Assembly: GCA_964540655.1 (NCBI GenBank) | Contig: CAZINR010000001.1 | Coordinates: 5,067 to 69,066 of the forward strand | Direction of reading: 5' to 3' | DNA from: an uncultured archaeon | Lineage (GTDB): Archaea > Altiarchaeota > Altiarchaeia > JAFGQM01 | DNA: 64,000 nt | In this document: one piece after another, positions 2,852 to 47,664 of the stretch | Numbering within the stretch: the stretch's first letter is position 1 | How the letters are laid out: every line of letters starts with the position of its first letter | Notes under the pieces: generated by a model | What the model saw: the letters and a program-made list of their open reading frames with translations, nothing else | What the model was told of the DNA's origin: nothing | Database searches by the model: none | Program-made: the position numbers and the translations under genes

Positions 2852-2889
2852 TGAGTATTTATGGTAAAGGGCAATATAAGTGCTATTTC

Positions 2890-3744
2890 CTACTTTGAAA
2901 GCTCTCTCGCCAATATAAGCGAGTCGTTGTAGTCGTAGAATTTGATTTCCTGCAGCGCCCTCTTTAGCATCTTCTTCTCCACCAGGTTCTTCAAATCCCC
3001 GATTGCGCACGGTCCCAGGCCCTTGGCGCCGCCGATGCGGTCGCCATCCATGTCCGGCTTTATGCTCTCTATGCCATAGGGCTGTATGGCATTTACGTCC
3101 GCAACTATCTTGGGGCTCAACTTGGAGAGTGTCTCCGAGTCCATCAACTGGGTGGCTTTGGCGCCCGTGGCTAGAATGATGTCCGCGTCCTTGCAGGCGG
3201 CTGCCCTCTCCGAGACGTTCATACCCTGCGCGCCCGTGACCTTCCCGCGCACGTCGTCTGAGAGCTTGTTGGCTATCTTGGTGGCCTTGTCTTTGGTCCT
3301 TGAAGTTATCGTAACCTCCGCCCCCAGATTCCTCAGGAGCAGCGCGGATATCTGCCCTATGGGCCCCGTCCCGGCCAGTATCGTGACTTTCTTTCCTTTG
3401 AGGCTGCCGGCCAGCTTCTCTATCTTGGCTATGGTCGCAGCTGCGGTCGTGCATGCCCCGTTGGGATCGAATATCACCGACATGCTGAACGGGTCGCGCA
3501 GCATGCGCTTCAGCTTCTGGAATATCTTCTCGGAGCCGTCCAAGTCGCTCCCCACCATTATGACGGTGTTCCTGAGTCCCTCCTCGTCTCTGGCGAACAT
3601 GGCATTGTGGATGATGTAATCCACATTATCAGCCGTCACACCGGCGTAGGGTATAACGGCATCATAGTCGGCGTCCAGGGCAAGGAGTAGGTCGAAGGGA
3701 TTGGCTACCTTGTTCGTGTCCAGGTAAAGCAGCGCCTTCTTCAT
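2890..3744 (-). CDS. NAD(P)-dependent methylene-H4MPT / methylene-H4F dehydrogenase, MtdA/FolD-like
   Basis: 284 aa; Rossmann motif KVTILAGTGPIGQISALLLRNLGAEVTITSR; size and layout of MtdA-type dehydrogenases; lies next to fae-hps. Confidence 0.5.
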   Translation of the reverse strand: MKKALLYLDTNKVANPFDLLLALDADYDAVIPYAGVTADNVDYIIHNAMFARDEEGLRNTVIMVGSDLDGSEKIFQKLKRMLRDPFSMSVIFDPNGACTTAAATIAKIEKLAGSLKGKKVTILAGTGPIGQISALLLRNLGAEVTITSRTKDKATKIANKLSDDVRGKVTGAQGMNVSERAAACKDADIILATGAKATQLMDSETLSKLSPKIVADVNAIQPYGIESIKPDMDGDRIGGAKGLGPCAIGDLKNLVEKKMLKRALQEIKFYDYNDSLILARELSK

Positions 3745-3750
3745 TTAGCC

Positions 3751-4953: not shown

Positions 4954-4968
4954 TATCTCCTCCAGTTA

Positions 4969-5373
4969 TTAAGCGTTCTTGGACAGCTTCACCGCCGATT
5001 CCACACCTCTCTTGGCGTAATCGTCTATCCTGCTCATGGCCTGCGCGCGCGTCTGGCCCGGTCCGCTGACCCCCAGTCCCACCGGCTTGTCGTATTCGAG
5101 CGACAAGTCGGTCAGCTTCCTTGCGAGCTGCCCGGCTATGACCTCGTCGTGTTCGGTCTCCCCCTCTATTATCGCGCCGAGCGCCACGACCGCGTCTACG
5201 CCCTTGTTCTTCAAGAGCTTTTTGACCATGATGGGCATGTCATATGAGCCGGGCACCGCGGCGACCTCTACCACCTTCGCACCGAGCAGTTTGGCGTGCT
5301 CCTTGGCCCTTTCCAGCATGGCGCTGGTTATGTCATAGTTAAACTCAGAAACAACTATACCAAGATTCGTCAT
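4969..5373 (-). CDS. ribH: 6,7-dimethyl-8-ribityllumazine synthase
   Basis: 134 aa; [13 protein letters not shown]...VPGSYDMP...[12 protein letters not shown], lumazine synthase motifs. Confidence 0.85.
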
Positions 5374-5421
5374 TTTTAGAAACCCCTATAATTTGTTTTT
5401 GTTTGAATTAAAATAAAAGCC

Positions 5422-6146
<725 letters not shown>

Positions 6147-6164
6147 TTATTACTAAAAGTAATA

Positions 6165-7382
6165 TCATTCCTCGAAGTGCCCCAGCTTGCGCTTCTTGGT
6201 GTTGATGTATCGCTCGTTGTGCGGGTTCGTCGGCAGGTAGAGCGGCACCCTCCCCACTACCCTCAGCCCGTAACCTTCGAGCCCCACAATCTTCCTCGGA
6301 TTGTTCGTCATCAACCTTATGGTGCTCAGCCCTAGGTCTCTCAGTATCTGGGCGCCGATGCCGTACTCCCTCAAATCGTCCTCGAAACCCAGGGCGTGAT
6401 TGGCCTCGACCGTGTCCAGGCCCTCATCCTGCAAGGCATACGCCCTCATCTTGTTCCTCAGGCCTATGCCTCTGCCCTCTTGCCTCATGTACAGAAGGAC
6501 TCCCTCGCCCTCCTCGTCAATCCTCCGCAAAGCCTCGTGCAGCTGCTCCCCGCAGTCGCATCTCAGGGAACCCAGCAGGTCGCCGGTCAGGCACTCGGAA
6601 TGAACCCTCACCAAAACGTTTTTCTCACCCTTGACATCTCCCCTGACAAGGGCCAGATGGTCCTTGTCGTCCACTACCGACCTGTAAAGAATGACTTTGA
6701 AATCACCGTGTCTGGTCGGAAGTTTGGCCTCGGTGATCCTCTCGATTAGCGGCTCCTTCTTCTTGCCTATGTATGTCTTGTCCTTCCTTATGCGGTACTC
6801 TATCAAATCTTCGATAGAGATTATCTTCAGACCGTGCTCATCGGCGAACTCTTCTAGCTGCGGGAGCCGGGCCATGGCCCCGTCCTCTTTGATTACCTCG
6901 CAGATGACACCGGCCGGATAGAAACCGGCCAGACGTGCCAGGTCCACCGCGGCCTCGGTATGGCCTGCCCTTTTCAGCACCCCACCCTCCTTTGCGCGCA
7001 GGGGGAATATGTGCCCAGGGCGACTGAAGTCCTCGGGCCTAGCCAGCGGATCCAGGAACTTCCTTATGGTGCGCGCGCGGTCATGAGCGGATATGCCGGT
7101 GGTCGTCCCGTCTTTCGCGTCTATAGAGACGGTGAAGGCAGTCTCTTTCTTGTCGGTGTTGTCCTTCACCATCTGCCTGATGTCCAGCTCGTCCAGACGG
7201 TCCCCGGAGGAGGCTAGACACACTAGTCCGCGGCCCTCTTTTATCATGAAATTGACCGCTTCTGGCGTCACCTTCTCGGCCGCCATAACCAGATCGCCCT
7301 CATTCTCCCTGTTCTCGTCGTCCACGACTATCACCATCTTCCCCTCTTCGATGTCCCCTATGGCCTCTTCTATCTTGTTCAC
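6165..7382 (-). CDS. ribBA: Bifunctional 3,4-dihydroxy-2-butanone-4-phosphate synthase / GTP cyclohydrolase II
   Basis: 405 aa; N-terminal DHBP synthase ([18 protein letters not shown]) and C-terminal GCH II (CDCGEQL...RGIG) motifs. Confidence 0.85.
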
Positions 7383-8443
7383 TTTTTCGCAGGATATCCC
7401 AGCAGGAGGAAATCTTCCCCCACCCTCTTCATCTCCACCCGCTCCAGGCGAGTGGCGTCTTTTATGTTCTTCGCCCCTCGACCGGTTATCACAGCCCCAC
7501 TCCCACTGATTATCTTCGGGGATATGAAGAACATGACTTTGTCCACTATGCCTGCGTCGAGGGCCGAGCCGATGAGCTCCCCCCCACCCTCTACCATTAT
7601 GGAGGTTATCTCCTCTGAGACAAGCTCTCCCAAGAGCTTCTTCAAATCCACTTCGCCATCGACATCATCCACGACCACGACCCTTTTCCCCCTTTTCCTG
7701 AGGGCCTCTATCCGGTCCATGGGAGCTTGGTTGGTCGTAGCTATTACAGTCTTGGCATCGTTGTTCAGTATCTTGGCGTCAGCCGGGATTCTCAGTCTGG
7801 AATCAGCGACAATCCTTATGGGATTTTTGCCCTCGCAGGTTCGGCAGGTCAATTCCGGGTCGTCCTTCAGGACAGTCTCAATCCCCACCATTACCGCGTC
7901 CACCTGCGCGCGCAAGTCGTGGACCGCACTCCTGGCTTCTTCGCCGGTTATCCACCTCGAACTCCCATCAGCCGCGGACATCTTGCCGTCCGCGGACAGC
8001 GCCGCCTTTGCGATTACGAACGGCTGCTTGGTCGTTATGAACTTCTCGTATGCCTCGTTCATCTCTCTCGCTTCCATCTCTAGGATTCCCTTCTCGACTT
8101 CGATGCCCGCGCGCGACAATTGCGCTATCCCCCGGCCCGAGACCTTCGGGTTCGGGTCCTCGGAGGCGATGACCACCCTGTTCACGCCCGCCTCGATTAT
8201 CGCGTCCGTGCAGGGAGGCGTCCTCCCCTCGCAGCAGCAGGGCTCCAGGGTGACGTACATGGTCGCACTCCTCGCCTGTTCCCTAGCCCCCTCCAGGGCC
8301 TTCACCTCGGCGTGAGCTTCTCCAGCCTTCTCGTGAAACCCGCTCCCCACTATTTTCCCGCTCTTGACTATTAAACATCCCACCGCGGGGTTCGGTGATG
8401 TCCTGCCCAGCCCCTTCCTGGCCAGATTCAGCGCCTCGCGCAT
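7379..8443 (-). CDS. ribD: Riboflavin biosynthesis deaminase/reductase
   Basis: CMP/dCMP deaminase zinc motif (HAEVKAL...TLEPCCCEG) plus a C-terminal RibD reductase domain. Start placed at the Met of [11 protein letters not shown]; the 152-aa N-terminal extension of the track ORF 7379..8899 is judged spurious. Confidence 0.75.
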
Positions 8444-8600
8444 ATATTCCTCGTCAGAATTCACGTTTAAACAGCCATATAATTCAGAACAACGGCTAAA
8501 AATCAGAATTTTCCACCGGTCTATTGACCTGTGGTTTTTGACAGGTGCCGCATCGGCGATGGTCCATATTTGTTCATTTAGACTCATAATATACGAAAAG
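8444..8600. promoter_or_regulatory. Divergent intergenic promoter region (ribD <-> DHPS-like gene)
   Basis: 157-bp AT-richer spacer with TATA-like elements (tttaaa, atataat) and a 6-bp inverted repeat acctgt-N8-acaggt. Confidence 0.3.
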
Positions 8601-10064
8601 ATGTCCGAACTCCTTCTGATAACGGGGAAGCTCGCAGAGGAGCAGGTCAGGGAATGCGCGCAGGAACTGGGCGCGGATGTCCTCGCCCTCCCAGTCAGCG
8701 TCGCCCAGTTCATCGGCCCCAAATTGGCCAGTTCCAGGATAAAAGATTTGGGCAAAACATACGGCCGCATAATCTTCCCCGGATTAGTCAGATTCGACGT
8801 GTCAAAGGTGGAAAGAGAGGTGGGCATGCCCTGCTTTAAAGGGCCCAAGCACCCCTGTGACCTCATCGAGGTTCTGAAAAAGGGCCTGCACCTATCCAAG
8901 ACGCAATCCGCGGACGCCCTGATGGAGAAATCGGGGGAAGAGGATTACAAAAAGCTGGTTGAAGAGGCTGAAAAATCGCACAAGGGCCTCACGGTCGGCG
9001 GACTCAAAGTCGCCGGCGGCCTGCCGCCCCGGATAATCGCGGAGATAGTCGACGCCCCCCTCCTCTCCGACGAGCAGCTCACAGAGCGCGCGCAGTATTA
9101 CCTCAACTCGGGCGCAGACATAATAGACGTGGGCGCGATAGCCGCGGAAGACAATTCCAAAAGACTGGGGCAAGCTGTCGCTCTTCTCAAAAAGAGGTTC
9201 TCCGTTCCGGTGAGCATAGACGCCCTAAACCCGAAAGAGATAAACGCGGGGATAGGGGCTGGAGCGGAATTGGTGCTCAGCCTGTGCGGCAGGAATATGG
9301 AGCAAGTCACAAAATCCGATGATGTCGCTTATGTGGTCATCGCAGAGGAGGACGAAGACCTGCGTGACAATATAAGGCGCGCGCAGGAGCTCGGCTTCAA
9401 GAACCTCATAGCCGACCCCATACTCGCCCCCCCGTTTAGAATAGCGCGGTCTCTGGCTGAATATCGCTCATTCGCCCAGGCCCCAGGCATGCCCCTCCTG
9501 ATGGGCATAGGCAACGTCACCGAGATGATGGATGTGGACTCTCCGGGCGTGAACGGCCTTCTGGCCGCTATAGCCGTAGAGCTGGATGTCTCCCTGATGC
9601 TGACTACAGAGAACAGCCACAAGACCCGCAATTCGGTAAGGGAGCTGAAGCGGGCAATAAAGCTGATGTTCCTGGCGAGGTCCAAGGGAACCCTTCCCAA
9701 GGACCTGGGCTTCGACCTCCTTCTCGCCAAGGGCAAGGGGGAGGGCCTGTCTTTTGATTTGGGAGATGCAAAGGTGATGCAGGTTCTCGACAGCAGCCAG
9801 GGCTTCAGACCCGACCCGAAGGGCCATTTCAACGTCTTCGTGGACTTCGGTAAAAACAAGATAATCGCCGCCCATTTCAAGGACGATTTCGACCGGGTCT
9901 TGTCGGGAGACAGCGCCGAGGCCTTATCAAAAGAGATAATAGACAAAGGCTTGGTATCTGACCTAAACCATGCCGCTTATCTGGGCAGGGAGCTGCAGAA
10001 GGCGGAACTTTGCCTCAAACTGGGCCGCGGGTACGTTCAGGACGACGATTTGCCCGGCTTGTGA
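8601..10064 (+). CDS. Dihydropteroate-synthase-like pterin-binding protein with C-terminal extension (H4MPT/folate-type cofactor biosynthesis)
   Basis: Start at MSELLLITG (ATG 8601). Central DHPS/Pterin_bind-like region (GADIIDVGAIA...VPVSIDALNP) plus a roughly 150-aa C-terminal domain, as in archaeal MJ0107-type proteins. Confidence 0.5.
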   Translation: MSELLLITGKLAEEQVRECAQELGADVLALPVSVAQFIGPKLASSRIKDLGKTYGRIIFPGLVRFDVSKVEREVGMPCFKGPKHPCDLIEVLKKGLHLSKTQSADALMEKSGEEDYKKLVEEAEKSHKGLTVGGLKVAGGLPPRIIAEIVDAPLLSDEQLTERAQYYLNSGADIIDVGAIAAEDNSKRLGQAVALLKKRFSVPVSIDALNPKEINAGIGAGAELVLSLCGRNMEQVTKSDDVAYVVIAEEDEDLRDNIRRAQELGFKNLIADPILAPPFRIARSLAEYRSFAQAPGMPLLMGIGNVTEMMDVDSPGVNGLLAAIAVELDVSLMLTTENSHKTRNSVRELKRAIKLMFLARSKGTLPKDLGFDLLLAKGKGEGLSFDLGDAKVMQVLDSSQGFRPDPKGHFNVFVDFGKNKIIAAHFKDDFDRVLSGDSAEALSKEIIDKGLVSDLNHAAYLGRELQKAELCLKLGRGYVQDDDLPGL

Positions 10065-10342
10065 ACTATGGTAGACTTCTCTATGAGCATTATGCCCATT
10101 ATGACTGCTATCGCGAGTATCAGCATCACACTTGCGTTGATAACTGTGGTGGGCCATCCGACCACCGTCCCATAAATCAGTATGGACATTATGGCCCCTA
10201 TAAGTACAAGAACATAGACCAGTTCTAGGACCTTCTTGTGGGCGTGGGGAAGCTCGAAGTGCAACGGGTCGGGGAGCTTGCTGAATGACTCTTTCACCGC
10301 GTCGTTGAGGGTCCCCTTCTCCCTTCTAGACTTTAGAACCAT
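10037..10342 (-). CDS. Small membrane protein, hypothetical
   Basis: Two hydrophobic helices (VLVLIGAIMSILIYGTVVGWPTTVINASVMLILAIAVIMGIML); overlaps both neighbouring gene ends slightly. Confidence 0.3.
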   Translation of the reverse strand: MVLKSRREKGTLNDAVKESFSKLPDPLHFELPHAHKKVLELVYVLVLIGAIMSILIYGTVVGWPTTVINASVMLILAIAVIMGIMLIEKSTIVHKPGKSSS

Positions 10343-11204
10343 CCTTCTCACGAATCTTCTTGAACTCTGCCATCAGCTTTTTTGTCAAATTGCCCGGCTT
10401 GCCGTCAGCTATCTTGCGCGCATCGCACTGCACGACAGGTATGACCTCTGCCGCCGTCCCGGTCATGAAGGCCTCATCGGCCGTGTAGACGTCGAAGAGT
10501 GTGAGGTTCTTTTCCTTGACTTTGACACCCATCTTCCCCGCCAACTCCATTATGGCGCCTCTGGTTATGCCTATGAGCACCCCGGCACCCGTGGGCGGCG
10601 TCCAGAGCTCTCCGTCCTTGACTATGAAGAAGTTGTCGCCCGTCCCCTCGGCGACATGGCCCAGGCTGTTGAGCATGAGGGCCTCGTCGCATTTGGCGAG
10701 ATTGGCCTGTATCTTGCCCATTATGTTGTTCAGGTAATTCAGAGTCTTTGCCTTTATGTCCAGCGCGTCGCAGGCGGTTCTTCTGGTTCCGACGGTAACG
10801 ACGCATATGCCCTTGTCATACAAATCGCCGTAGAGCGGGGCGAAATGCTGCGCTATGCATATTATCGTAGGCTTCGGGCACTTCCTCGGGTCGAGGCCCA
10901 AATCCCCGACGCCCCTTGTGACTATGAGCCGGACATAGGCGTCCTTCAGATTGTTCTTCCTTATGCTGCTTAGAACGATATCCGCCATCTCCTTCTTGGA
11001 GAGAGGGACCTCTAGATTTATAGCCTTGGCACTGTCATAGAGCCGGTCTATGTGCTGCTTCAGGCGGAAGACGTTGCCGTTGTAGCACCTTATGCCCTCA
11101 AAGACGCCGTCGCCGTAGAGCAGGCCGTGGTCGTAGACCGATATCTTCGCTTCCCCTTTGGGATAGAACTTCCCGTCGATGTAAATGACCTGTTCGGAAC
11201 TCAT
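10326..11204 (-). CDS. ilvE: Branched-chain amino acid aminotransferase
   Basis: 292 aa; fold-type IV aminotransferase signatures (GDGVFEGIRCY..., EAFMTGTAAEVIPV). Confidence 0.85.
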   Translation of the reverse strand: MSSEQVIYIDGKFYPKGEAKISVYDHGLLYGDGVFEGIRCYNGNVFRLKQHIDRLYDSAKAINLEVPLSKKEMADIVLSSIRKNNLKDAYVRLIVTRGVGDLGLDPRKCPKPTIICIAQHFAPLYGDLYDKGICVVTVGTRRTACDALDIKAKTLNYLNNIMGKIQANLAKCDEALMLNSLGHVAEGTGDNFFIVKDGELWTPPTGAGVLIGITRGAIMELAGKMGVKVKEKNLTLFDVYTADEAFMTGTAAEVIPVVQCDARKIADGKPGNLTKKLMAEFKKIREKDGSKV

Positions 11205-31112: not shown

Positions 31113-32816
31113 TCAGGAATGCTCCTGATGCGCGCGCACCTCGTCCCTCAGTTCTTTTAGAATCTCCCCGAGCTCCTCAACGTTCACAGAAAGCATTCTT
31201 TCGTAACCCCCGTCTTTTGTATCGATAATTGTCGTCACCTTTCCATTACCTTCACCCACCCCTCCCAAGTCCCTTATGACCGAGTCAACTTCCTCTACGG
31301 ACGGTCTGCTGCCCGTGCCCTTGTAAGACAGTAATTTTCCAATTCCGCGACGCACATCTCTTAGACTGGGCGACATTCTGACTCTCGCATTTGAAGGAGG
31401 ATTCGCCCTCCTGCCCCTAGAACCCCTCAGTACCCTGTGGTGTTCCGAGAGCTTTTCCAGCAGGGTGTCAGCAGTCAGCATATCTCTCCTCAATGGCGGA
31501 GACCCGCCTTTAACCGGGCGGCGCATGCCTCCCCAAAGAGTGACTTGACCCTCTGAAAAATAACTATCATACAACCTCTTCATGCCTCTGACGCCCACGC
31601 CGTGCTTTCGGGCTATATCCGTTAGACTCGCTGCCCCCCTCCTGACCTCCTGGAAGTCTCCCTCCAAATCGGTCTTCAAATAATCAAAATATTTTTTGAC
31701 CTGCCCCTCGCTTAGCCCCGTCGTGCCGACATGCGATTTCTGGGACCATCTCCCCGAGGCCCTGCGCAGGATTTCTCTTCTTATCCGATGGCCATGCCCC
31801 TCTCCACCCTCTATTATCTCTCTCTGACGATCGTTTATGAGGCCGGCCTCATGAAGGCACATGGCGGCGGCCTCGTGTCCGCTCACAGAATATTTTCGCT
31901 TATACCATCGTATAACTTTGTCGGGGAAATGCTTAGGCTGGACCTCCAAAGCTTTGCCCCCAGCCGCCTCTAAAGCCTTCTTAGCTTCTTCTGCTCTTCT
32001 CTCAGGCGTCCACCTGGTCGTATGCTGCCTAAGTTCGCCCCGGCTGAAAGGCTCCAGCATAGCTCTTCTTGCGTCTCTGCGGTCACCGTGTATGCCGCGC
32101 AGGGTCCTGAAATGTTGGGGTATCGCCCGTATGGACTCCACCCTCTTCAATATTCCCGGTCTGTTACTCCTAGGGACCCCTACCATCCCCATGGCCCCCT
32201 CCGGGTCGGTCCTGAGCAGCTCGGCAAATCTTTTTTCATTGCTTGCGGACCCGCGCTCCGGCCTGCCTATGAGTTTCCAGTAAAGGGCTCTAGCGTATCT
32301 CCGCTCAGCCTTTTCCAAATCCGCGACGCTCAATTCATGGGGGCCCCTGGCTTCTCCCCCCCATATATGCCGTGGCATGTAACCTCTGACTTCGGAGACT
32401 GCCCTAGTGTAATCTTTTAGTGCAGATCCAAGTTCCTTTTCATTGGGGGGCGTTGACACGTTCGGATTGAACACATGCTTCATTGCGCCCATCTGTCGCA
32501 GACGGTGGACTCTTTCACCCCATTCCTGGCCCAACGGCGGCCCCCCCTCGACCAACCGCACCCCCGCCACTTCACTAGGGCTTTCCCTGCCTGCGATAGA
32601 TTCTTCCAGAGAAGACCTCAGATGTCTCTTCAGAGCTTCGGTCCTGTTTCTCAGAGTAGTTTCGGCCAGATGCCTCCCGAAGACCCTCCTGCCGAGCTCC
32701 AGCGTAGAAAGGTCTGGGCCGTGGTCTATAAGCAATTTGAGGGCACGTCGCCTGACTTCTACAGGGAAACTGGAATATTTTTTATATTCGCCCCCAGACC
32801 GCCGTCGCCTGGCCAT
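31113..32816 (-). CDS. Large Arg-rich protein of unknown function (567 aa)
   Basis: Uninterrupted 1.7-kb ORF in a high-GC context; no recognisable catalytic motifs; a possible HTH-like segment (SLTDIARKHGVGVRGMKRLY). Confidence 0.5.
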   Translation of the reverse strand: MARRRRSGGEYKKYSSFPVEVRRRALKLLIDHGPDLSTLELGRRVFGRHLAETTLRNRTEALKRHLRSSLEESIAGRESPSEVAGVRLVEGGPPLGQEWGERVHRLRQMGAMKHVFNPNVSTPPNEKELGSALKDYTRAVSEVRGYMPRHIWGGEARGPHELSVADLEKAERRYARALYWKLIGRPERGSASNEKRFAELLRTDPEGAMGMVGVPRSNRPGILKRVESIRAIPQHFRTLRGIHGDRRDARRAMLEPFSRGELRQHTTRWTPERRAEEAKKALEAAGGKALEVQPKHFPDKVIRWYKRKYSVSGHEAAAMCLHEAGLINDRQREIIEGGEGHGHRIRREILRRASGRWSQKSHVGTTGLSEGQVKKYFDYLKTDLEGDFQEVRRGAASLTDIARKHGVGVRGMKRLYDSYFSEGQVTLWGGMRRPVKGGSPPLRRDMLTADTLLEKLSEHHRVLRGSRGRRANPPSNARVRMSPSLRDVRRGIGKLLSYKGTGSRPSVEEVDSVIRDLGGVGEGNGKVTTIIDTKDGGYERMLSVNVEELGEILKELRDEVRAHQEHS

Positions 32817-38579: not shown

Positions 38580-38771
38580 ATGGAAGGAAAAGTAAAGTGG
38601 TTCAACGAAAGGAAGGGCTACGGTTTCATTGAAGGCGAGGATGGCAACGACTACTTCGTCCACTATACCGCTGTGGAGAGCGGCGGTTACCTCAATGACG
38701 GCGACGCTGTTTCTTTCGAGCCTACAGATGGCGACCGAGGAAAAAAGGCTGAGAAAGTCAAAAAGGCATAA
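38580..38771 (+). CDS. Cold-shock protein (CspA family)
   Basis: 63 aa; KWFNERKGYGFI (RNP1) and VHYTAV motifs. Confidence 0.85.
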   Translation: MEGKVKWFNERKGYGFIEGEDGNDYFVHYTAVESGGYLNDGDAVSFEPTDGDRGKKAEKVKKA

Positions 38772-38797: not shown

Positions 38798-38830
38798 AGG
38801 TCCGAAACGGACCGGAATTCATTTCTTTTT
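38798..38830 (+). terminator. Hairpin plus T-tract downstream of csp
   Basis: ggtccg-aaa-cggacc perfect stem followed by ggaattcatttctttttac; oligo-T tracts act as archaeal terminators. Confidence 0.35.
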
Positions 38831-38863
38831 ACGCTTATTTTCTCCCTCCCGCAAAATACTAAG

Positions 38864-39811
38864 ATGGATGTCAAACTCTTTGTCATTCTGATAATCGTCA
38901 TGTTGATAGCAGCTCTTGCTCTCGTGCTTCTCAGCCCGGTACCTGGGGGCGGGGGATGTGCGGAAGATGGGGACTGCCCCCCGGGTTTCATATGTCAGCA
39001 GGAGACCTTCTGCAGCCAGGACGAACCGGAGAACTGCTTTGAAATGAACAGGTGCCGCCAGGCGCCGGAGTCAGATGGGGCTGTTTGCGGAAACCTGATT
39101 TGCGAGCAGGAAGAGCTGCAAACTTGCTCAGAAGATTGCATAGAGCCGGCGAACAAGATAGCCGGCACACCGTGTGTGGGTAACGAGCAGTTCGTCGATG
39201 TAGGGTTCGGGGGCTGGCGGACCTGCACCACAGACCCAGAGCAAAGGGGTGTCATGTGCAAAGAGGCGGGGGATGCGGCATCAGATTATGGACTGCCCTC
39301 CGATTCCCCAAGCGGGTGGTGGTGCGTTGTAGAGGAAGCGCCCTGTGCCGCGCCCTTCTGCTGGGGGACATTCGGAGACTATTCTAGCGAAGCCGACTCC
39401 ACAACAGTATATGAATGCAATTCTCCGGGCGGGTGCATCAGGACCAAGCCCACTCCCTCTCTCTGTGAGAACGGCGTTTGTGAAGCGGGTGAAGAGACAT
39501 CCTGCCCCCAGGACTGCAGAGAGCCGTATCCTGGTCCGCCCGAACTCTCGTGCGATGAAATAGATGGGGAGATGGAACGGGTGATGACGTGCCAACAGGA
39601 CTCGGACTGTGTTTTCAGCGAGGACATAACTGGATGTGGGTTCCCATGCGGAATGGCCCACAACAAGGGCTACGGCGCGGGAGAGATCCAGGCGCTCATA
39701 AGCCAGTGGGACAATTGCCACGAGTGGCCGTGCCCCGCTTATGGCTGCCCGACGGATGCCACGGCCAATGCCGTATGTGAGAACGGCGCTTGCGCGGAGG
39801 TGACGACATAG
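38864..39811 (+). CDS. Cys-rich acidic secreted/membrane-anchored protein (32 Cys in 315 aa)
   Basis: N-terminal TM/signal anchor (LFVILIIVMLIAALALVLL), repeated CENGxCxE and GDCPPGFIC-type motifs; 6 nt upstream of the Cas4-like gene. Confidence 0.6.
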   Translation: MDVKLFVILIIVMLIAALALVLLSPVPGGGGCAEDGDCPPGFICQQETFCSQDEPENCFEMNRCRQAPESDGAVCGNLICEQEELQTCSEDCIEPANKIAGTPCVGNEQFVDVGFGGWRTCTTDPEQRGVMCKEAGDAASDYGLPSDSPSGWWCVVEEAPCAAPFCWGTFGDYSSEADSTTVYECNSPGGCIRTKPTPSLCENGVCEAGEETSCPQDCREPYPGPPELSCDEIDGEMERVMTCQQDSDCVFSEDITGCGFPCGMAHNKGYGAGEIQALISQWDNCHEWPCPAYGCPTDATANAVCENGACAEVTT

Positions 39812-39817
39812 ATTAAA

Positions 39818-40723
39818 ATGGATATCAAAAACCGATTCTCCTGGTCGCAGTCGCGCCAGAAGATGTTTGACCAGTGCAAGCGCAGGTACTACTACAACTA
39901 CTACGGCTTCTGGGGGGGCTGGGAGTTCACCGCCGACCGGAGGACCCGCGAGATATACATCCTCAAGAAGCTTCAGAGCATGCCCATGTTCCTGGGGGAC
40001 AGCGTCCACAGGACCATCGAGAACTATCTCAACCAGCTGCGCAAGCGGCGCGAGATGCCTCTGAACTCGATGGTGCGCCAGTTCCGCGGTTACATGAACC
40101 ATGGGTTCGAGGAGTCGAAGGGAAAGAAGTACAGGGTCAACCCCAAGAAACACTGCGGGCTCTGGGAGCACGAGTACGGCGCCCCCATTGACGAGGGCGC
40201 ATTGGAGGACTTGATCCGCCAGGGAGAGCTGTGCCTGAAGAACTTCTACAACTCCAAGGTGCTCGAGGGGATAAAGGCCACCGACATAAACGACTGGCTT
40301 CCCATAGAGACGTTCCAGGACTTCAATTTCGAGGGGACGACAGTCTACGTCAAAATAGACTTCGCCATGATGAGCGGGGGCAAGACCACCATCTACGACT
40401 GGAAGACCGGGAAGACCGACAGCGGCACCGACTCTCAGCTGGCCGCCTACGCCCTCTACGCCACCAAGAAGTGGGGAGCGCAGCTGCCCATAACGACACG
40501 CGAGTACAACTGCCGCTTCGACGAGCTGAAGGAATCGAATGTGGGTGAGAGGGAGATAGAAGAGGCAAAAGAGCTGATAAGGAGCAGCATCGCCGAGATG
40601 AAGGAGCTCTTGTTCAACCCGGAAACCAACGCCGCGAGGGAAGCGGACTTCGAGAAGTGCGAGGGGCCGGAGTGCGATTACTGCAATTTCAGGAAAATCT
40701 GCTTTGAGGAAGAAAAGCTTTAA
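39818..40723 (+). CDS. Cas4-like PD-(D/E)xK nuclease with 4Fe-4S cluster (PDDEXK_1 family), standalone
   Basis: N-terminal Cys (FDQCKRRYYY), PD-(D/E)xK elements (VKIDFAM, IYDWKTGK, QLAAYALY) and C-terminal C-x2-C-x5-C (CDYCNFRKIC) preceded by CEGPEC. No CRISPR array in the window. Confidence 0.7.
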   Translation: MDIKNRFSWSQSRQKMFDQCKRRYYYNYYGFWGGWEFTADRRTREIYILKKLQSMPMFLGDSVHRTIENYLNQLRKRREMPLNSMVRQFRGYMNHGFEESKGKKYRVNPKKHCGLWEHEYGAPIDEGALEDLIRQGELCLKNFYNSKVLEGIKATDINDWLPIETFQDFNFEGTTVYVKIDFAMMSGGKTTIYDWKTGKTDSGTDSQLAAYALYATKKWGAQLPITTREYNCRFDELKESNVGEREIEEAKELIRSSIAEMKELLFNPETNAAREADFEKCEGPECDYCNFRKICFEEEKL

Positions 40724-41706
40724 TCCAATACCTTCAGTACTTCGGGCTTCTTCTTGAAATACTTCCTCACAGGCTCGAGATAATCGATTAGATAGCGCGC
40801 GCAGGCTTTCTTCAGGTCGGCCGGGTGCAGCCCTTCCACGAACGCCTTCTCTAGCTCGTCATAAGACTGGAGTTCCAAATCTCCGCCGAACTTCTCCGGC
40901 CGCTCGATGACCACCTTCTCATTCTTCGCGAATATGAAGAACCTGAACACGTCGAGTATCGGGTTGTTCTCCGCCTGGCCCGCCGGGCAGTAGGCCTTCT
41001 GGATCTTGGCCTCGGTGCTCTTCGGGTCTTCGTGGACCGCGATTATCGTCTCCGGTTTGCTCGAGCTCATCTTCGTCTCCGGCCCGCCCAGCGAGACTAT
41101 CAGCGGGGTGTGTATGCAGACTGGCTTCTTGCCTCCTATCTTTTCCAGCTCCTCGCGCGCCAGCATGTGTATCTTGCGCTGTTCGATTCCGCCGTAGCAG
41201 ATGTCGGCCTTGAGATGCTTCACGTCGGCGGCCTGCATGATTGGGTAGATCATCTGCGACACGTGCGCATGCTCCAAATCGCGCGCAACATCCTGCATGG
41301 AGCGTGTCGCCCTGTTAACAGTCACGTCGGTACCCAGCGCCAGAACGTCATGAAAATACTCGGGCTTCAGCTGGAACTCCGAGCCCTTGATGAACCGGGT
41401 ATTCTTCGGGTCCAGACCCAGAGCGATAAAGCAGTGGCGCCAGTACTCCACCATCTTGGCTATCCACTCCTCCCTACCCTTCATGTTGAGGAGGGTGTGC
41501 AGGTCGGCAAAAAGGACGGTCACATCCAGTCCAGCTTTTTGAAATTCGATAAGCTTCTGGACGGTCACCATGGTCCCTATGTGCACGGCCCCGCTGGTCT
41601 CGTAGCCGCAGTAGACGCGAGCTTTGCCCTTTTTAATCATCGCATCCAGCTCACTCTCCTCTACGACCTCTATGACGTTCCGCATGATAAGCCCTTTGTC
41701 CATCAT
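40720..41706 (-). CDS. tyrS: Tyrosyl-tRNA synthetase
   Basis: 328 aa archaeal-type TyrRS; HIGT (HIGH-like) motif and a KMSSS motif. Confidence 0.9.
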   Translation of the reverse strand: MMDKGLIMRNVIEVVEESELDAMIKKGKARVYCGYETSGAVHIGTMVTVQKLIEFQKAGLDVTVLFADLHTLLNMKGREEWIAKMVEYWRHCFIALGLDPKNTRFIKGSEFQLKPEYFHDVLALGTDVTVNRATRSMQDVARDLEHAHVSQMIYPIMQAADVKHLKADICYGGIEQRKIHMLAREELEKIGGKKPVCIHTPLIVSLGGPETKMSSSKPETIIAVHEDPKSTEAKIQKAYCPAGQAENNPILDVFRFFIFAKNEKVVIERPEKFGGDLELQSYDELEKAFVEGLHPADLKKACARYLIDYLEPVRKYFKKKPEVLKVLD

Positions 41707-42266
41707 AGCTCTATCCCCATGGCATGCTCCGACTCGAACCCTATGGTCGAGGTCCTTAGGTAGGCAGAGTCTTCGTCCAGCTCGTATAGATCGAAAACCA
41801 TGGTCTCGTTGGTCATGTTGGTTATCAGGCAGTCGAAATCCTCGCAGACCCCCACGGTGTAGATTATGAAATCCCCCCTCGCTTCGTCCGATATCTCATC
41901 CTCGCTGGCGTTGGTCAGGATGAGCTGCGAAAGCCCGTTGTCCAGGAGATAGAGGTCCCCTTCCAGCCTGCCGCTCAGGTCTTGTGGCACCTCCAGCTGG
42001 CCGAACAACGCCCGGTTGCCGGTCAGCTCTTCAACTGTCGCCTGGCCGGTCCCCGCAGGGAAACCAGTTCCGAAATCCATATTGTCATCCTCGACTGGCT
42101 CTTCAGGCGCCGTGTTCTGAGGCGAGAAACCCCAGTAGGCGGCCACAGTGAATCCAAGGAAAAGAAGCACGAGCACGAACATAGTCCCGATCTTAATCTT
42201 TCTGTCCTTCTTCTTCTGGAGCTTTATCTCCTTGCCGGTCTTCCTGCGCTTCTTAGCCTTGACCAT
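41703..42266 (-). CDS. Membrane-anchored acidic protein, hypothetical
   Basis: Basic N-terminus, one TM helix (MFVLVLLFLGFTVAAYWGF), acidic C-terminal domain; 4-nt overlap with the tyrS start. Confidence 0.45.
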   Translation of the reverse strand: MVKAKKRRKTGKEIKLQKKKDRKIKIGTMFVLVLLFLGFTVAAYWGFSPQNTAPEEPVEDDNMDFGTGFPAGTGQATVEELTGNRALFGQLEVPQDLSGRLEGDLYLLDNGLSQLILTNASEDEISDEARGDFIIYTVGVCEDFDCLITNMTNETMVFDLYELDEDSAYLRTSTIGFESEHAMGIEL

Positions 42267-44235: not shown

Positions 44236-47200
44236 ATGACGCAGCTCATCATCGCCGAGAAGCCGAGCGTGGCAGGCAAGATAGCCAACGCCATAGGCCG
44301 CGCGCACAAGAAGAGCCGCAACGGAGCGCCCTACTACGAGGTGGATGCCCCCGACGGCAAGGCGATAGTCGCCCCCGCGGTCGGGCATGTCTACACGTTA
44401 CAGGAGACGCAAAACAAGAAGTGGAACCTTGAGTATCCGGTCTTCGACATCCAGTGGGTGCCCATCTACCAGGCGGAGAAGGGCGCTTCATACACGAAAT
44501 CCTATGTCAGCAACATCAAAGAGCTGTGCAAGGAGGCCGACTCTTATGTCAACGCGTGCGACTATGATGTCGAGGGCAGCGTTATCGGATACAATGTCCT
44601 CAAGCACGCCTGCGGCGCAGACCCGGAGAAAGACAAGATTAAACGAATGCACTTCTCGACCGTGACCACGCCCGACCTGGTCAGGGCCTACAACGAGATG
44701 GAGGAGTTCGACGACGGCCAGACCCAGGCCGGCCTGACCCGCCATGTCCTGGACTGGTACTACGGCATAAACCTCTCCCGCGCGCTCATCTCCGCCCTGC
44801 GCTCCACCCGCACCAGGGGGACCCTGAGCATAGGCAGGGTGCAGGGCCCCGCGCTGAAGCTGATAGTCGACAAGGAGCGCGAGATAAGGGCTTTCGTGCC
44901 AGAGCCGTATTGGGTGATAAGCGCTCTCCTAAACAAGGACAAGGATTTTGAGGCCGTCCATGTCAAGGAGAAGTTCGAGAAAGAGGAAGAGGCCAAGGCA
45001 GCGTATGAGAAGGTCAAGGGGCAGAAGACCGGCACGGTCAAGAGCGTCGACCGGAAGAAATACAAGCAGCCTCCTCCCAACCCCTTCGATCTGACGTCGC
45101 TGCAGGTGGAGGCACACCGCCATCACCGCATAGCTCCCAAGCAGACTCTGGAGATTGGCCAGACCCTATACGAGAGAGGATACATCTCATATCCGAGGAC
45201 ATCCTCGCAGCAGCTGCCGCCGAGCATCGGTTACAAAAAGATACTGGACAAGATAGCGCAGCAGTCCGAATACTCCGAGGGCGCGGAAAAACTGCTCTCC
45301 AAGCCTTCGCTGCGGCCGAACAACGGCAAGAAGAAGGACCCGGCGCACCCGGCCATCTATCCGACCGGCGAGGTCCCGAAGGGAATCGCCGACCGTGAGA
45401 AGAGGGTCTACGACTTAATAGTCCGCAGGTTCATGGCCACCTTCGGAGAGTGGGCGGTGAGGGAGAGCATGAAGGCGATAATCGACATCAACACCGAAGA
45501 CTTCAAGGCCGAGGGCAAGCGCACCGTGGAGAAGAACTGGCACGAGCTCTACGGCAAGTACGCCAAGTTCGACGAGGTGATGCTGCCCGATTTGAAGGAG
45601 GGCGAATCCGTAGACATCAAGAAGCTCGGACTCGACAAGAAGATGACCCAGCCGCCGAAGCGCTACACCGAGTCGTCCATAATCAGCGAGCTGGAGAAGA
45701 GGAACCTGGGCACAAAGTGCGCAGAGTATGGCACGGAAATCTATATCAAAAGAAACGGCAAAATTAGTAAGGTCCCCATAGGAAAGTTTGTTGATAAACA
45801 ACTTAAATCGGGCCTGAACTCAAAAGAAATAAAAAAAGGGACCCATACCCTATGCTGCGATATTAAAAATCATAGAATGGTATGGAAACCCATCAGTTCA
45901 GTCAGTAGGAGACCTGTTGAGGAGAATGAGCTCAAAGAAGTAATGGCAGCAGGGTCCTCAATAAAACTTACAAATGAGCATCCCGTTGCAATCTTAAAGG
46001 AGAATGCGATTAAATTCAAAGAAGTAAAAAAACTTAAGATAGGGGATAACTTAATTCGGGCAAGACCTATACGATGGGATCCTAAATCCAGAGTAATCGC
46101 AAATATGATTGGCGATGGAAGCATCTCTATAAGAAAAGATATCCATGAAAAGACCCCGGACATGCGTTATCACAATAAAGAGCTGGCCCTTATCGACGTT
46201 TTTTCATCCGCTGCCAATATTGCCTTTTGCGCCGGGGCCATTAAGAGAAAGGCTTCAAGAGGTAGATACTATGTTGCCTTGCCCTTGGCTGCAGGCAGAA
46301 AAATTCTGCAACAGTATCCGGAAATTGAAAAAGGGGAGTTTCCTGAGTCGATTGATAAACCTACTGCAATAGGAGCCTTTTTTGATGACGAAGGTTGTGT
46401 TTATTTAGAGCAAATAAAAGAATATGGCAACATTCAGTCCTCGGGGGTGCCCAAGATAAAGATGGCACAAAAGATCAGAGGACCCCTGGACCAGATTTCC
46501 CTATGGTTGCGTGATTTGGGCATATCATCTAAGGTTTACAAAACCAATGTTAATTATCGTGGCTCTAAACGGGAATGCTATGAGCTATGGGTGCGCGGCA
46601 GGAAGAATCTTGAAAGATTTATGCGGAACATCCCCTTTTTCCATCCAAGAAAGTTTGAGAAACTTATGCTCGGCCTGTCCAGATATCCATCGGTTTTGAA
46701 GAAAGCCCGGATTTACAGGAATATAGATCTACAGGGCAACACACATGACAGCGATTTAAGCAAATCTCTGGGATTATCCCTAACTCACACTAGGGCCTTA
46801 TGCCGGGAATTGGAAGAAGACGGCCTAATAAAAATAACGAGAAAGCCAAATCTTAAGAGGCGAAGCGCCAATAACTCACTATGCCTTACTGTCTCTTTAC
46901 CTTACTTTGACACCTTCTATTCAAGACTTGGCGATATTTGTCTAAGTTCGAAAATGACTGCGGTCCCAGTATCCGGAATAAGGCCGGCATGGTCTACCCA
47001 TAAATTTGTGTACGATATAACCGTGGATTCGGAAACTCCAAATTACTTTGCGGGACATTGTGGCCTTCTAATACACAACTCCACTCGCGCGACCGTCATA
47101 GACACGCTGTTCAAGCGCAATTACATAATCGGCAAGTCCATAGAGGCGACCGACCTGGGGGTAAAGACGGTCGAGACCCTGGAGAAGCACAGCCCGGAGA

Positions 47201-47664
47201 TTCTGGATGAGGAGCTGACCCGCAGTTTCGAGGAGGAGATGGACGAGCTGATGGGGGGGAAGAAGACTGGCGAGGAGGTTGAAGCCAAGAACCGACACGT
47301 CTTGCTGAAGGTGCTGGAGAAATTCAAGAAGGAGGAGAAAGAGATAGGCGAAGAGCTGAGGAGCGCTCTCTTCAAGGCACAAGAGGAGAAGGCGGAGAGC
47401 GACGCGCTCGGCAAGTGTCCCGTTTGTAAAGAGGGATTGCTCGTCATCAGGAGGAACCCCAAGACCAAGAAGCGCTTCCTGGGCTGCAGCAACTATCCAA
47501 AATGCACCGAGACGCAGCCCCTCCCGCAGAAGGGATCTGTCAAGCCGGCCAAGAAGGACTGCCCGACCTGCGGCTACCCGATGGCCAACGTCTGGAGCAG
47601 AGGCAAGAAGGCCCCTTGGGTCATATGCACGAACATCAACTGCCCGAGCAAGAAGAAAAAGTAA
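44236..47664 (+). CDS. topA: DNA topoisomerase I (type IA) interrupted by an intein; C-terminal zinc ribbons
   Basis: Toprim N-terminus (LIIAEKPSVAGKIA), active-site GYISYPRTSS, C-terminal CPVCK...CSNYPKC and CPTCG...CTNINC ribbons. Mature protein would be about 688 aa. Confidence 0.85.
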   Translation: MTQLIIAEKPSVAGKIANAIGRAHKKSRNGAPYYEVDAPDGKAIVAPAVGHVYTLQETQNKKWNLEYPVFDIQWVPIYQAEKGASYTKSYVSNIKELCKEADSYVNACDYDVEGSVIGYNVLKHACGADPEKDKIKRMHFSTVTTPDLVRAYNEMEEFDDGQTQAGLTRHVLDWYYGINLSRALISALRSTRTRGTLSIGRVQGPALKLIVDKEREIRAFVPEPYWVISALLNKDKDFEAVHVKEKFEKEEEAKAAYEKVKGQKTGTVKSVDRKKYKQPPPNPFDLTSLQVEAHRHHRIAPKQTLEIGQTLYERGYISYPRTSSQQLPPSIGYKKILDKIAQQSEYSEGAEKLLSKPSLRPNNGKKKDPAHPAIYPTGEVPKGIADREKRVYDLIVRRFMATFGEWAVRESMKAIIDINTEDFKAEGKRTVEKNWHELYGKYAKFDEVMLPDLKEGESVDIKKLGLDKKMTQPPKRYTESSIISELEKRNLGTKCAEYGTEIYIKRNGKISKVPIGKFVDKQLKSGLNSKEIKKGTHTLCCDIKNHRMVWKPISSVSRRPVEENELKEVMAAGSSIKLTNEHPVAILKENAIKFKEVKKLKIGDNLIRARPIRWDPKSRVIANMIGDGSISIRKDIHEKTPDMRYHNKELALIDVFSSAANIAFCAGAIKRKASRGRYYVALPLAAGRKILQQYPEIEKGEFPESIDKPTAIGAFFDDEGCVYLEQIKEYGNIQSSGVPKIKMAQKIRGPLDQISLWLRDLGISSKVYKTNVNYRGSKRECYELWVRGRKNLERFMRNIPFFHPRKFEKLMLGLSRYPSVLKKARIYRNIDLQGNTHDSDLSKSLGLSLTHTRALCRELEEDGLIKITRKPNLKRRSANNSLCLTVSLPYFDTFYSRLGDICLSSKMTAVPVSGIRPAWSTHKFVYDITVDSETPNYFAGHCGLLIHNSTRATVIDTLFKRNYIIGKSIEATDLGVKTVETLEKHSPEILDEELTRSFEEEMDELMGGKKTGEEVEAKNRHVLLKVLEKFKKEEKEIGEELRSALFKAQEEKAESDALGKCPVCKEGLLVIRRNPKTKKRFLGCSNYPKCTETQPLPQKGSVKPAKKDCPTCGYPMANVWSRGKKAPWVICTNINCPSKKKK
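45718..47079 (+). mobile_element. Intein (454 aa) with LAGLIDADG homing-endonuclease domain in topA
   Basis: Begins with Cys after LGTK and ends HN before STRATVI. Block B TNEHP, LAGLIDADG-like VIANMIGDGSI and AIGAFFDDEGCVY, terminal VYDITVDS...GLLIHN. AT-rich internal segment. Removal restores an LGTK-STRATVI motif like E. coli GIGRPSTYASI. Confidence 0.8.

Follow-up and report, generated by a model that had tools for sequence, protein, structure and literature searches.

The stretch of DNA analysed here, referred to as the window, is 64 kb long and comes from an archaeon whose named aCPSF1 homologues place it in the lineage Altiarchaeota. Two reading frames of the window, ORF A and ORF B, lie in tandem, with only 6 nt between the stop codon of the former (TAG, 39809-39811) and the ATG of the latter (39818). 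Both are real and are as the earlier note described them: a 315-aa protein with 32 cysteines and an N-terminal hydrophobic segment, followed 6 nt downstream by a 301-aa protein. The features of the locus are as follows:

38580-38771, forward strand: cold-shock-domain (CSD) protein gene, 63 aa (Pfam CSD, 1.4e-21)
38799-38830, forward strand: hairpin GGTCCG-AAA-CGGACC (38799-38813) with a T-rich run (38822-38830), read from the sequence
38833-38841, forward strand: GCTTATT(T/A) box, a putative archaeal TATA-like promoter element, 31 nt before the ATG of ORF A (alignment)
38864-39811, forward strand: ORF A, gene of a Cys-rich acidic mosaic protein, 315 aa, read from the sequence
39796-39803, forward strand: Shine-Dalgarno-like GGAGGTGA in the 3'-terminal part of ORF A and 14 nt ahead of the nuclease ATG, read from the sequence
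39818-40723, forward strand: ORF B, gene of a stand-alone Cas4-family nuclease (PF12705 PDDEXK_1), 301 aa (Pfam PDDEXK_1, 2e-16)
40720-41706, reverse strand: tyrosyl-tRNA synthetase (TyrRS) gene, the syntenic anchor (Pfam tRNA-synt_1b, 6.4e-49)

The TyrRS gene is convergent with the nuclease gene, and their 3' ends overlap by 4 nt, an arrangement that is also seen in two relatives, L001 and L006. The genes around the nuclease include PurM, TyrRS, TYW2/3, TopA, Lhr, aCPSF1, RtcB and similar ones, and every neighbour scanned was an archaeal (Altiarchaeota) housekeeping gene. The TRF and spaced direct-repeat scans detected no CRISPR array in the 64-kb window, the Rfam and tRNA scans gave no matches, and no cas or Piwi/Argonaute gene was found among the approximately 25 window ORFs scanned with Pfam, in agreement with the earlier observation that the window holds neither a CRISPR array nor a cas gene. 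The Pfam scans of these ORFs returned only housekeeping genes, which speaks against a provirus or a defence island.

ORF A encodes a strongly acidic protein (net charge of about -41; 53 D/E against 12 K/R) with one segment of strong hydrophobicity, which lies near the N-terminus (residues 5-23) and has a mean Kyte-Doolittle value of 3.5. Its cysteines fall into blocks of 6, 4, 8, 4 and 10, each of them even, and the protein can be divided as follows:

Residues 3-22: N-terminal anchor or signal helix
Residues 29-66: module A, 6 Cys
Residues 73-94: CGNxxCE module, 4 Cys
Residues 95-199: middle region, 8 Cys, poorly modelled
Residues 199-220: second module, CENGxCE
Residues 228-315: C-terminal alpha/beta module (module C), 10 Cys

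The repeated CENGxCxE modules reported before hold only loosely, since the exact motif occurs once, at residue 305 (CENGACAE), and is accompanied by the close variants CENGVCEAGE at 201 and CGNLICEQEE at 75. No curated Pfam or NCBIfam family and no PADLOC or PHROGs entry matched ORF A; the scores against TIGR04201 (15.5 bits, cutoff 25) and Pfam Squash (13.4 bits, cutoff 22) stayed below threshold. The TIGR04201 family (Myxo_Cys_RPT, with CGNGxCE-type repeats) resembles ORF A in having short acidic modules of 4-6 Cys in a secreted protein, and residues 30-48 show a weak likeness to it (E 0.014) under the curated cutoff, whereas modules A and C fit no described family. An exhaustive HMMER search of 1.84 billion representative proteins gave 13 weak matches (E<=1e-3), each spanning single modules, and a word-indexed search returned the self-match alone. 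The AF2 model had an overall pLDDT of 67, with modules A and C at about 90 and the middle region below 50, and Foldseek found no fold match for it in the PDB, nothing falling under E=1. The GC3 of ORF A is 0.65, against 0.85 for the nuclease gene. ORF A is a near-orphan, fast-evolving mosaic. It is presumably a modular surface protein rich in disulfides, which would be secreted or anchored in the membrane and located outside the cell.

The hairpin and T-run downstream of the CSD gene likely end its transcript, and matching structures were observed in L001, L006 and L087. In L006, the GCTTATT box precedes the Cys-rich start by 30 nt; L001 and L087 have no Cys-rich gene, and there the alignment places the box 30 nt ahead of the nuclease start. 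This box is a putative promoter of a leaderless bicistronic mRNA. Neither inspection of the sequence nor an intrinsic-terminator scan revealed a terminator-like site between ORF A and ORF B, though the sigma-70 promoter and intrinsic-terminator scans are ill-suited to an archaeon and their counts were at chance level. The spacing of GGAGGTGA to the nuclease ATG exceeds the optimum, and its role as a Shine-Dalgarno sequence is a presumed one. From the 6-nt gap, this element and the lack of an intervening terminator-like site, the two genes are probably co-transcribed.

ORF B displays the Cas4 residue pattern of one N-terminal and three C-terminal cysteines around a D...(D/E)xK site, and the whole nuclease signature listed in the earlier note was recovered: the predicted ligands of the Fe-S 'staple' are C20, C286, C289 and C295 (C286-x2-C289-x5-C295), and the active site consists of D181, D194 and K196 (D194-W-K196), followed by Q207xxxY211. 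In an alignment of 31 homologues, most of these catalytic and cluster residues were invariant or nearly so, and a family-specific motif, YxYYGxWGGW, was recognized at residues 24-35. The HMM classification passed PF12705 PDDEXK_1 with 61.1 bits (cutoff 22; residues 8-295 against positions 1-246 of 247), while both Cas4 models failed, namely TIGR00372 (23.6 bits, cutoff 65) and PF01930 (11.9 bits, cutoff 22.7). The term 'Cas4-like' used before is apt only if taken broadly, to mean an iron-staple PD-(D/E)XK nuclease of the Cas4 family. The PHROG matches were generic exonuclease families. The AF2 model (pLDDT 92.9) has the fold of solved iron-staple nucleases, and Foldseek placed ACE1 (9iab/9iac) at the top (E 3e-8, TM 0.62/0.69, identity of about 14-15%), followed by AdnA, Dna2 and Cas4 SSO0001, with AddAB also among the matches. 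ACE1 was likewise the best sequence-profile match in the PDB (1e-8), the aligned part being the C-terminal half alone, and in the profile alignment to CtACE1, D181 and D194 fall on the two aspartates whose replacement defines the catalytic mutant of CtACE1 (PMC12094033). Stand-alone Cas4-family PD-(D/E)XK nucleases about 300 aa long form a large family, found for the most part in bacteria, and ORF B is one of its members.

Comparison with known systems places this family more closely. ACE1 is an Fe4S4 ssDNA endonuclease (PMC12094033) and shares with ORF B the D-DxK triad, the Fe4S4 'iron staple' of 1+3 Cys, the single-domain size class and the lack of a helicase domain; it is restricted to cyanobacteria and usually shares its operon with a long-A pAgo, whereas ORF B is archaeal, has no pAgo nearby and carries the distinctive N-terminal YxYYGxWGGW. 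The pAgo-associated PADLOC profile Aga_Cas4-like_Nuc, which we equate by assumption with the ACE2 clade, matches ORF B over its full length (7.5e-26; residues 8-299 against positions 2-307 of 308), and the 301 aa of ORF B compare with an ACE2 average of 313 aa (PMC12094033). However, the score is a modest 89 bits, against 165-550 bits inside the family of ORF B itself, which suggests that this family is a sister of ACE2 and not a part of it. No Argonaute context was seen at any sampled locus of this family. AdnA/AddB and Dna2 have nuclease domains that also possess the iron-staple PD-(D/E)XK fold (Foldseek 7sjr, 6ppu, 5eax), but they are parts of large helicase-nuclease machines, whereas ORF B stands alone; the scope of Pfam PDDEXK_1, which ORF B passes, includes AddB-type nuclease domains. 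With solo-Cas4 (PF01930/COG1468), ORF B has in common the four-Cys cluster signature, the RecB-like motifs, an apparently vertical inheritance and a genome region without CRISPR-Cas. The similarity to Cas4 consists of a weak, sub-threshold profile match and the structural match to SSO0001; unlike Cas4, ORF B is about 100 aa longer, lies under the TIGR00372 and PF01930 thresholds and falls in pfam12705, which a 2017 study set aside as having no major CRISPR-associated branches (PMC5704561).

Full-length homologues of ORF B were confirmed at at least 555 sites in GTDB species-representative genomes, spread over many bacterial phyla, which form the majority, together with Altiarchaeota and Nanoarchaeia. 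Only 2 of 2.9 million IMG/VR contigs carried a member, which speaks against a viral origin of the nuclease. All-against-all ORF clustering found no conserved partner, as no neighbour family occurred at more than 10 of 81 loci, although several family loci lie on short contigs and the neighbourhood sampling is limited to that extent. LemA was the commonest Pfam family among 89 adjacent same-strand genes, with 5 occurrences, and a UvrD-type helicase was near the homologues at a small minority of loci. Among 135 large genes within 6 kb from 80 loci, Piwi and Cas were absent from the 25 most frequent Pfam families per search. This is a cellular family of very wide distribution that has no fixed partner. 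The locus in the window is a housekeeping one, and the link to viruses and defence islands that had been raised for such nucleases is not supported here.

Across the close archaeal clade, the nuclease gene is retained in synteny with the CSD gene, which adjoins it in the window, L001, L002/L006, L005, L086, L087 and L088; at the 79 other family loci, the flanks fetched from genome contigs contained no CSD gene. ORF A sits in a variable slot between these two genes. In L001, whose nuclease is 75% identical, the order is CSD-nuclease-TyrRS with a gap of 120 nt and no Cys-rich gene, whereas L006/L002 harbor in the same slot a Cys-rich homologue of 239 aa that is built from another set of modules, separated in L006 by 24 nt from a nuclease 74% identical to that of the window; the two Cys-rich versions share the anchor and modules A and C and differ in the remainder. 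The slot is empty in L087 and is occupied by an RHH/ParE pair (toxin-antitoxin) in L088, while L086 has two CSD genes after the nuclease, the order being reversed but the adjacency kept, and no Cys-rich gene is present. Other Altiarchaeota, L008 and L011, lack the Cys-rich gene, and L089 has a distant homologue that does not adjoin a nuclease. Of the two independent close relatives, L001 thus lacks the Cys-rich gene and only L006/L002 retains it, in the 239-aa version, and every more distant relative is without it. With the nuclease conserved and syntenic across the lineage, this is for the most part the outcome that the earlier note had named as refuting it, and a functional pairing is not supported. 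The pair is kept in two of the three sub-clade genomes, with gaps of 6 and 24 nt. This retention and the tight spacing speak against the two genes having no common function at all, and co-expression may have selective value.

We consider it probable that ORF A and ORF B are neighbours, probably on one transcript, with no common function. In one sub-lineage, the Cys-rich gene sits between a widely conserved nuclease and its putative promoter, so that gene order seems to have paired the two by chance, and a new system is not indicated. The opposite possibility, that the genes form a two-gene functional module, for instance an envelope sensor or virus decoy with a cytoplasmic DNA-degrading effector, co-transcribed because they act together, would agree with the gaps of 6 nt in the window and 24 nt in L006, with the one promoter-like box before the pair and with its survival in two genomes whose nucleases have diverged to 74% identity. 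It is nevertheless highly improbable, for L001 and every family locus fetched outside these two genomes do without the Cys-rich gene in the slot, L088 fills it with a toxin-antitoxin pair, the two versions are alike only in anchor, module A and module C, and the distant homologues of the modules are unlinked to nucleases. The Cys-rich protein also has no PADLOC match, and the pair would consist of an extracellular and a cytoplasmic protein, both so predicted, with no transmembrane signalling domain.

Two further explanations look for the partner of the nuclease elsewhere. That ORF B is a defence nuclease with a distal pAgo, generating or trimming guides in the manner of ACE2, is quite improbable. 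The best profile match is indeed the full-length PADLOC Aga_Cas4-like_Nuc (7.5e-26), the best structural matches are ACE1, and ACE proteins are reported to be encoded in some cases away from pAgo, with 92 of 115 ACE2 in genomes without one (PMC12094033). On the other hand, the scanned ORFs of the 64-kb window include no Piwi-domain gene, Piwi is not among the families listed for the large genes within 6 kb at 80 loci, the nuclease family has no conserved neighbour, its score of 89 bits is far under the within-family range and points to a sister family, and a wide, housekeeping-like distribution ill fits a defence accessory. A true partnership of the nuclease with the CSD protein, which would bind single-stranded nucleic acid and present or protect it, the Cys-rich gene being an irrelevant insertion, accounts for the one or two CSD genes beside the nuclease in seven of seven close-clade contigs, and for an adjacency that survives the reversed order of L086. 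Yet this linkage is restricted to one clade (nuclease identity of at least 57%) and was seen at 0 of 79 other loci, the CSD gene is followed by a hairpin/T-run that is likely a terminator of its own, insertions occur between it and the nuclease, and inherited gene order could suffice, so that we regard such a partnership as unlikely. A combined reading, which we also hold to be improbable, would make ORF B a member of an unrecognised clade of iron-staple nucleases that stand alone, are very widespread (at least 555 sites), carry an invariant YxYYGxWGGW, are related to ACE and have their own housekeeping role in ssDNA processing; in this sub-lineage, the nuclease would work with the adjacent CSD protein, and the co-expression of the Cys-rich gene would be selected.

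Under the preferred reading of neighbours with no common function, ORF B would be a general DNA-maintenance enzyme, vertically inherited in Altiarchaeota and acting outside CRISPR, Argonaute and other defence modules. By homology, it would hold a [4Fe-4S] cluster on C20, C286, C289 and C295 and cut ssDNA, be it at ends, in flaps or in duplex that has been unwound, by means of a metal ion that D181, D194 and K196 bind, and it may thread the strand through a narrow channel like ACE1 and the AdnA/AddB nuclease domains. This substrate is extrapolated from relatives at about 15% identity in structural alignment, and substrate preference varies within the superfamily, because the characterised solo-Cas4 of the archaeon M. 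mazei prefers supercoiled dsDNA (PMC12501428). In the one sub-clade where ORF A has come to lie between the putative nuclease promoter and the start codon, the nuclease would for that reason now be read as the second cistron.

In summary, the corrected annotation of the locus is a lineage-conserved PDDEXK_1/Cas4-family nuclease with an accessory gene inserted before it; the locus is no hidden element of CRISPR, viral or defence type. An accessory gene was apparently put between a promoter and its native gene, resulting in an operon of unrelated genes, and this cautions that tight spacing is a poor guide to function. ORF A enlarges a tiny family of presumably extracellular modules from uncultured microbes. 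The family of ORF B, a large, uncharacterised and sharply conserved group of stand-alone iron-staple nucleases, is now defined; as the closest relative of the recently characterised ACE enzymes that is not linked to Argonaute, it makes a reasonable biochemical target for learning what such nucleases do outside defence systems.

The two open reading frames are present exactly as the earlier note described, with the gene of a Cys-rich acidic protein (ORF A) directly before that of a Cas4-like nuclease (ORF B), and a short conserved box lies ahead of both:

38833-38841: GCTTATT(A/T) box
38864-39811, plus strand: ORF A, 315 aa with 32 Cys, and 53 D/E versus 12 K/R
39818-40723, plus strand: ORF B, beginning 6 nt past the ORF A stop codon

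By its profile match, ORF B is a member of Pfam PDDEXK_1 (PF12705; 61 bits, whole domain covered), and it carries C20, D181, D194-W-K196, Q207xxxY211 and C286-x2-C289-x5-C295. The Cas4-like description therefore holds for the cysteine and catalytic signature and for the folds matched, but not by the curated Cas4 models, both of which scored well below their thresholds (PF01930, 11.9 bits against 22.7; TIGR00372, 23.6 bits against 65); these thresholds and the genomic context rule out Cas4. Hudaiberdiev et al. excluded pfam12705 from Cas4 proper for want of major CRISPR-associated branches, and described vertical inheritance as the main mode for solo Cas4-family genes (PMC5704561). The top profile match across libraries was the PADLOC model of the Argonaute-associated Cas4-like nuclease (7.5e-26, full length), and PHROGs returned generic exonuclease families only. 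[quoted passage not shown] ACE1 was again the top PDB sequence match of the family profile, in whose alignment D181 and D194 fall on the two aspartates mutated in catalytic-dead CtACE1 (PMC12094033). ACE1 is an ssDNA endonuclease that contains Fe4S4 and passes the single strand through a narrow channel (PMC12094033), and by homology ORF B would hold a [4Fe-4S] 'iron staple' on C20/C286/C289/C295, cleave in a metal-dependent manner via D181/D194/K196 and probably act on single-stranded substrates; its mechanism should resemble that of ACE1 and the AdnA/AddB nuclease domains. Substrate choice varies within the superfamily, as shown by a characterised solo-Cas4 of an archaeon whose preferred substrate is supercoiled dsDNA (PMC12501428).

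Full-length homologues of ORF B (about 300 aa, 34-47% identity) are abundant, and when one genome from each GTDB species was scanned by pattern, at least 555 sites were confirmed to encode a relative. These are mostly bacterial, including Planctomycetota, Verrucomicrobiota, Clostridia, Desulfobacterota-like groups, Omnitrophota, Acidobacteriota, Lentisphaerota, Myxococcota and others, with archaeal sites in Altiarchaeota and Nanoarchaeia. The alignment displays a family signature, YxYYGxWGGW, directly after the N-terminal Cys, together with conserved H64, E117-H118, DWKTG and QxxxY. No neighbour gene family was common to more than 10 loci among 80 fetched loci and the window; the commonest Pfam family among 89 adjacent same-strand genes was LemA (n=5). 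Among 135 large genes within 6 kb, Piwi and Cas were absent from the 25 most frequent families listed per search, and UvrD-type helicases accounted for few of the genes among the families listed. A viral association, raised in the earlier note, was not borne out, for family members occur on 2 of 2.9 million viral contigs. By this profile of spread and neighbours, the family is a cellular, stand-alone, housekeeping-type gene. Seven Clostridia-like loci (L009, L010, L014, L016, L036, L052 and L080) carry an ORF with the N-terminal motif of UvrD/AddA-type helicases, at a distance of about 4-5 kb downstream from the nuclease, and a second PDDEXK_1 protein was noticed among the large neighbours at 2 loci; an AddAB/AdnAB-like repair neighbourhood may exist in the Clostridia-like clade only.

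The genes around ORFs A and B are ordinary archaeal housekeeping genes. Upstream are a class-V aminotransferase-like gene, PurM and a 63-aa cold-shock domain (CSD) gene; tyrosyl-tRNA synthetase (TyrRS) is convergent with ORF B, their 3' ends overlapping by 4 nt. TYW2, TYW3, topoisomerase I, Lhr helicase, a MiaB-like radical-SAM enzyme and FKBP are also close, with PurL, RtcB, RibD, RibBA, PurB, CCA-adding enzyme and aCPSF1 farther off. Nearly all named homologues of the window's aCPSF1 come from Candidatus Altiarchaeota or Altiarchaeales (nearest 79% identical; main Altiarchaeales group about 57%), which identifies the window as Altiarchaeota chromosome. The scanned ORFs gave no Piwi/Argonaute, cas, integrase or phage structural match, and a tandem and spaced repeat search found nothing CRISPR-array-like, in agreement with the earlier note; Rfam and tRNA searches of the window gave no matches. 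The topoisomerase I gene (44236-47664, plus strand, 1142 aa) harbors an intein with a LAGLIDADG homing-endonuclease domain, and in TopA at the equivalent place in L006, a relative's contig (9872-12031, 719 aa), intein domains were not seen. A 567-aa ORF amid the housekeeping genes (31113-32816, minus strand) has no Pfam match at E<=0.001. A 187-aa protein (41703-42266, minus strand), basic at the N-terminus, acidic in its C-terminal part and with a single hydrophobic segment, also lacks a Pfam match; in L001 and L006 its gene is likewise found in synteny downstream of TyrRS.

Conservation of the pair was judged on the contigs with the closest nuclease homologues, listed here with nuclease identity to the window:

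L001, 75%: CSD, 120-nt spacer, nuclease, TyrRS; Cys-rich gene absent
L006/L002 (one organism), 74%: CSD, 239-aa Cys-rich homologue, 24-nt gap, nuclease, TyrRS
L087, 61%: CSD-CSD-nuclease
L088, 60%: CSD-CSD-RHH-ParE-nuclease
L086, 60%: nuclease-CSD-CSD
L003/L005, 59%: CSD remnant upstream; different Cys-rich gene convergent downstream

The comparison indicates that the nuclease is stable, that CSD-nuclease adjacency is stable within the clade and that the gene in between is variable. The conservation of the nuclease across the lineage, the absence of the Cys-rich gene from L001 and the variable slot elsewhere largely go against the pairing highlighted in the earlier note. The window, L001 and L006/L002 are roughly equidistant (nuclease identity 74-77%, TyrRS 86-88%), and the simplest history of the Cys-rich gene is one gain, then one loss in L001. 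One or two 63-aa CSD genes (window 38580-38771) always adjoin the nuclease in the close clade loci L001, L002/L006, L005, L086, L087 and L088, with the order reversed in L086; no CSD gene was found at 79 other nuclease-family loci fetched from genomes, and in the more distant Altiarchaeota L008 and L011 (42% identity) the nuclease adjoins unrelated genes. Mobile or accessory genes cluster at the nuclease locus in three relatives: an RHH/ParE toxin-antitoxin pair occupies the CSD-nuclease slot in L088 (3734-4293), L087 has a HicAB pair (739-1199) upstream of its CSD genes, and L001 has a Y1 (IS200/IS605-type) transposase (222-698) upstream of CSD. A YkuD (L,D-transpeptidase) gene, absent from the window, stands between PurM and CSD in L006 (4370-4819, minus strand) and L002 (1225-1668, minus strand).

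ORF A is outside every described family. It fits no curated Pfam or NCBIfam family, and PADLOC and PHROGs gave no matches whatever. When 5.8 billion proteins were searched by word index, nothing but the protein itself came back; with HMMER, run exhaustively on 1.84 billion representatives, 13 matches were obtained at E<=1e-3, each to a single module. The protein is a mosaic that starts with an anchor or signal helix (one very hydrophobic segment, residues 5-23, helical in the AlphaFold model), followed by a 6-Cys module A (CxxDxDCxxGFxCxQ..C....P..C....C), two copies of a CGNxxCE..E...C..DC unit, a poorly conserved 8-Cys middle region and a C-terminal 10-Cys module C of about 85 aa (C..DSDCVF...C..PCGMAHNK...CPAYGC...C....C). 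The Cys blocks (6, 4, 8, 4 and 10) are each even, which is what an extracellular protein with all its cysteines in disulfide bonds should show. The repeated CENGxCxE modules reported earlier survive in part: the literal motif occurs once, at residue 305, with near-variants at 201 (CENGVCEAGE) and 75 (CGNLICEQEE). Modules A and C alone are confident in the AlphaFold model, which matched no PDB fold. In the L006 orthologue the anchor and modules A and C are retained, the middle of about 160 aa is missing and an unrelated Cys-rich tail of 80 aa is added. Several distant homologues have lipobox signal peptides, and the neighbour of one of this group is not a nuclease but an unrelated protein predicted to be extracellular. 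ORF A is best read as a disulfide-rich protein of the envelope, either membrane-anchored or secreted, that evolves by module shuffling. The different Cys-rich protein of L003 (1068-1871, minus strand), convergent on a nuclease of 59% identity, has a pilin-like (class III) signal sequence and adjoins a surface protein of 4162 aa that combines NosD/beta-helix, glycosidase and peptidase C1 domains (2706-11079, minus strand); Cys-rich envelope proteins appear common in this lineage.

In an intergenic alignment of four genomes, the first start codon past the CSD terminator follows the GCTTATT(A/T) box by 30-31 nt; this start codon is that of the nuclease in L001 (box at ~1158) and L087 (~2293) and that of the Cys-rich gene in L006 (~5227) and the window. 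This conserved position suggests that an archaeal TATA-like element gives rise to leaderless transcripts, and we read the box as the putative native promoter of a leaderless nuclease mRNA; where the slot is filled in the sub-clade, the former nuclease promoter would drive both genes. Co-transcription of ORFs A and B is plausible, given the 6-nt gap, the GGAGGTGA sequence that precedes the nuclease ATG by 14 nt, and the lack of a terminator-like site at the junction, but it would be a result of the accessory gene's position and not evidence of shared function. The GC3 of the two genes (0.65 for the Cys-rich gene versus 0.85 for the nuclease) fits different histories or expression levels, though weakly, since PurM and CSD are low in GC3 too.

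We consider it likely that ORFs A and B are functionally unrelated neighbours, in which ORF B would be a lineage-conserved stand-alone iron-staple nuclease serving general DNA maintenance on DNA ends or ssDNA, and ORF A an accessory surface-protein gene sitting in a variable slot. That they form a sensor/effector or defence pair is highly improbable, as the pair is conserved in just two sampled genomes, the slot is variable and no defence-family matches were obtained; the defence-island association suggested earlier likewise gives way to housekeeping surroundings. Profile and fold similarity hint at a distal Argonaute partner and an ACE-like role, but no context supports one and the family distribution argues against it, making this very unlikely; with the defining Argonaute association absent, ORF B is not demonstrably an ACE. 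A partnership between the CSD protein and the nuclease would account for the sole conserved linkage; it is nevertheless unlikely, being limited to one clade where inherited gene order may suffice, and the adjacency could reflect a functional link or mere inherited synteny.

Under the preferred reading of unrelated neighbours, this is no new kind of system; a known nuclease superfamily gains a member beside an orphan gene. Its residual value lies in a large uncharacterised WGGW-motif nuclease family, and in an accessory gene apparently placed between a promoter and its native gene.
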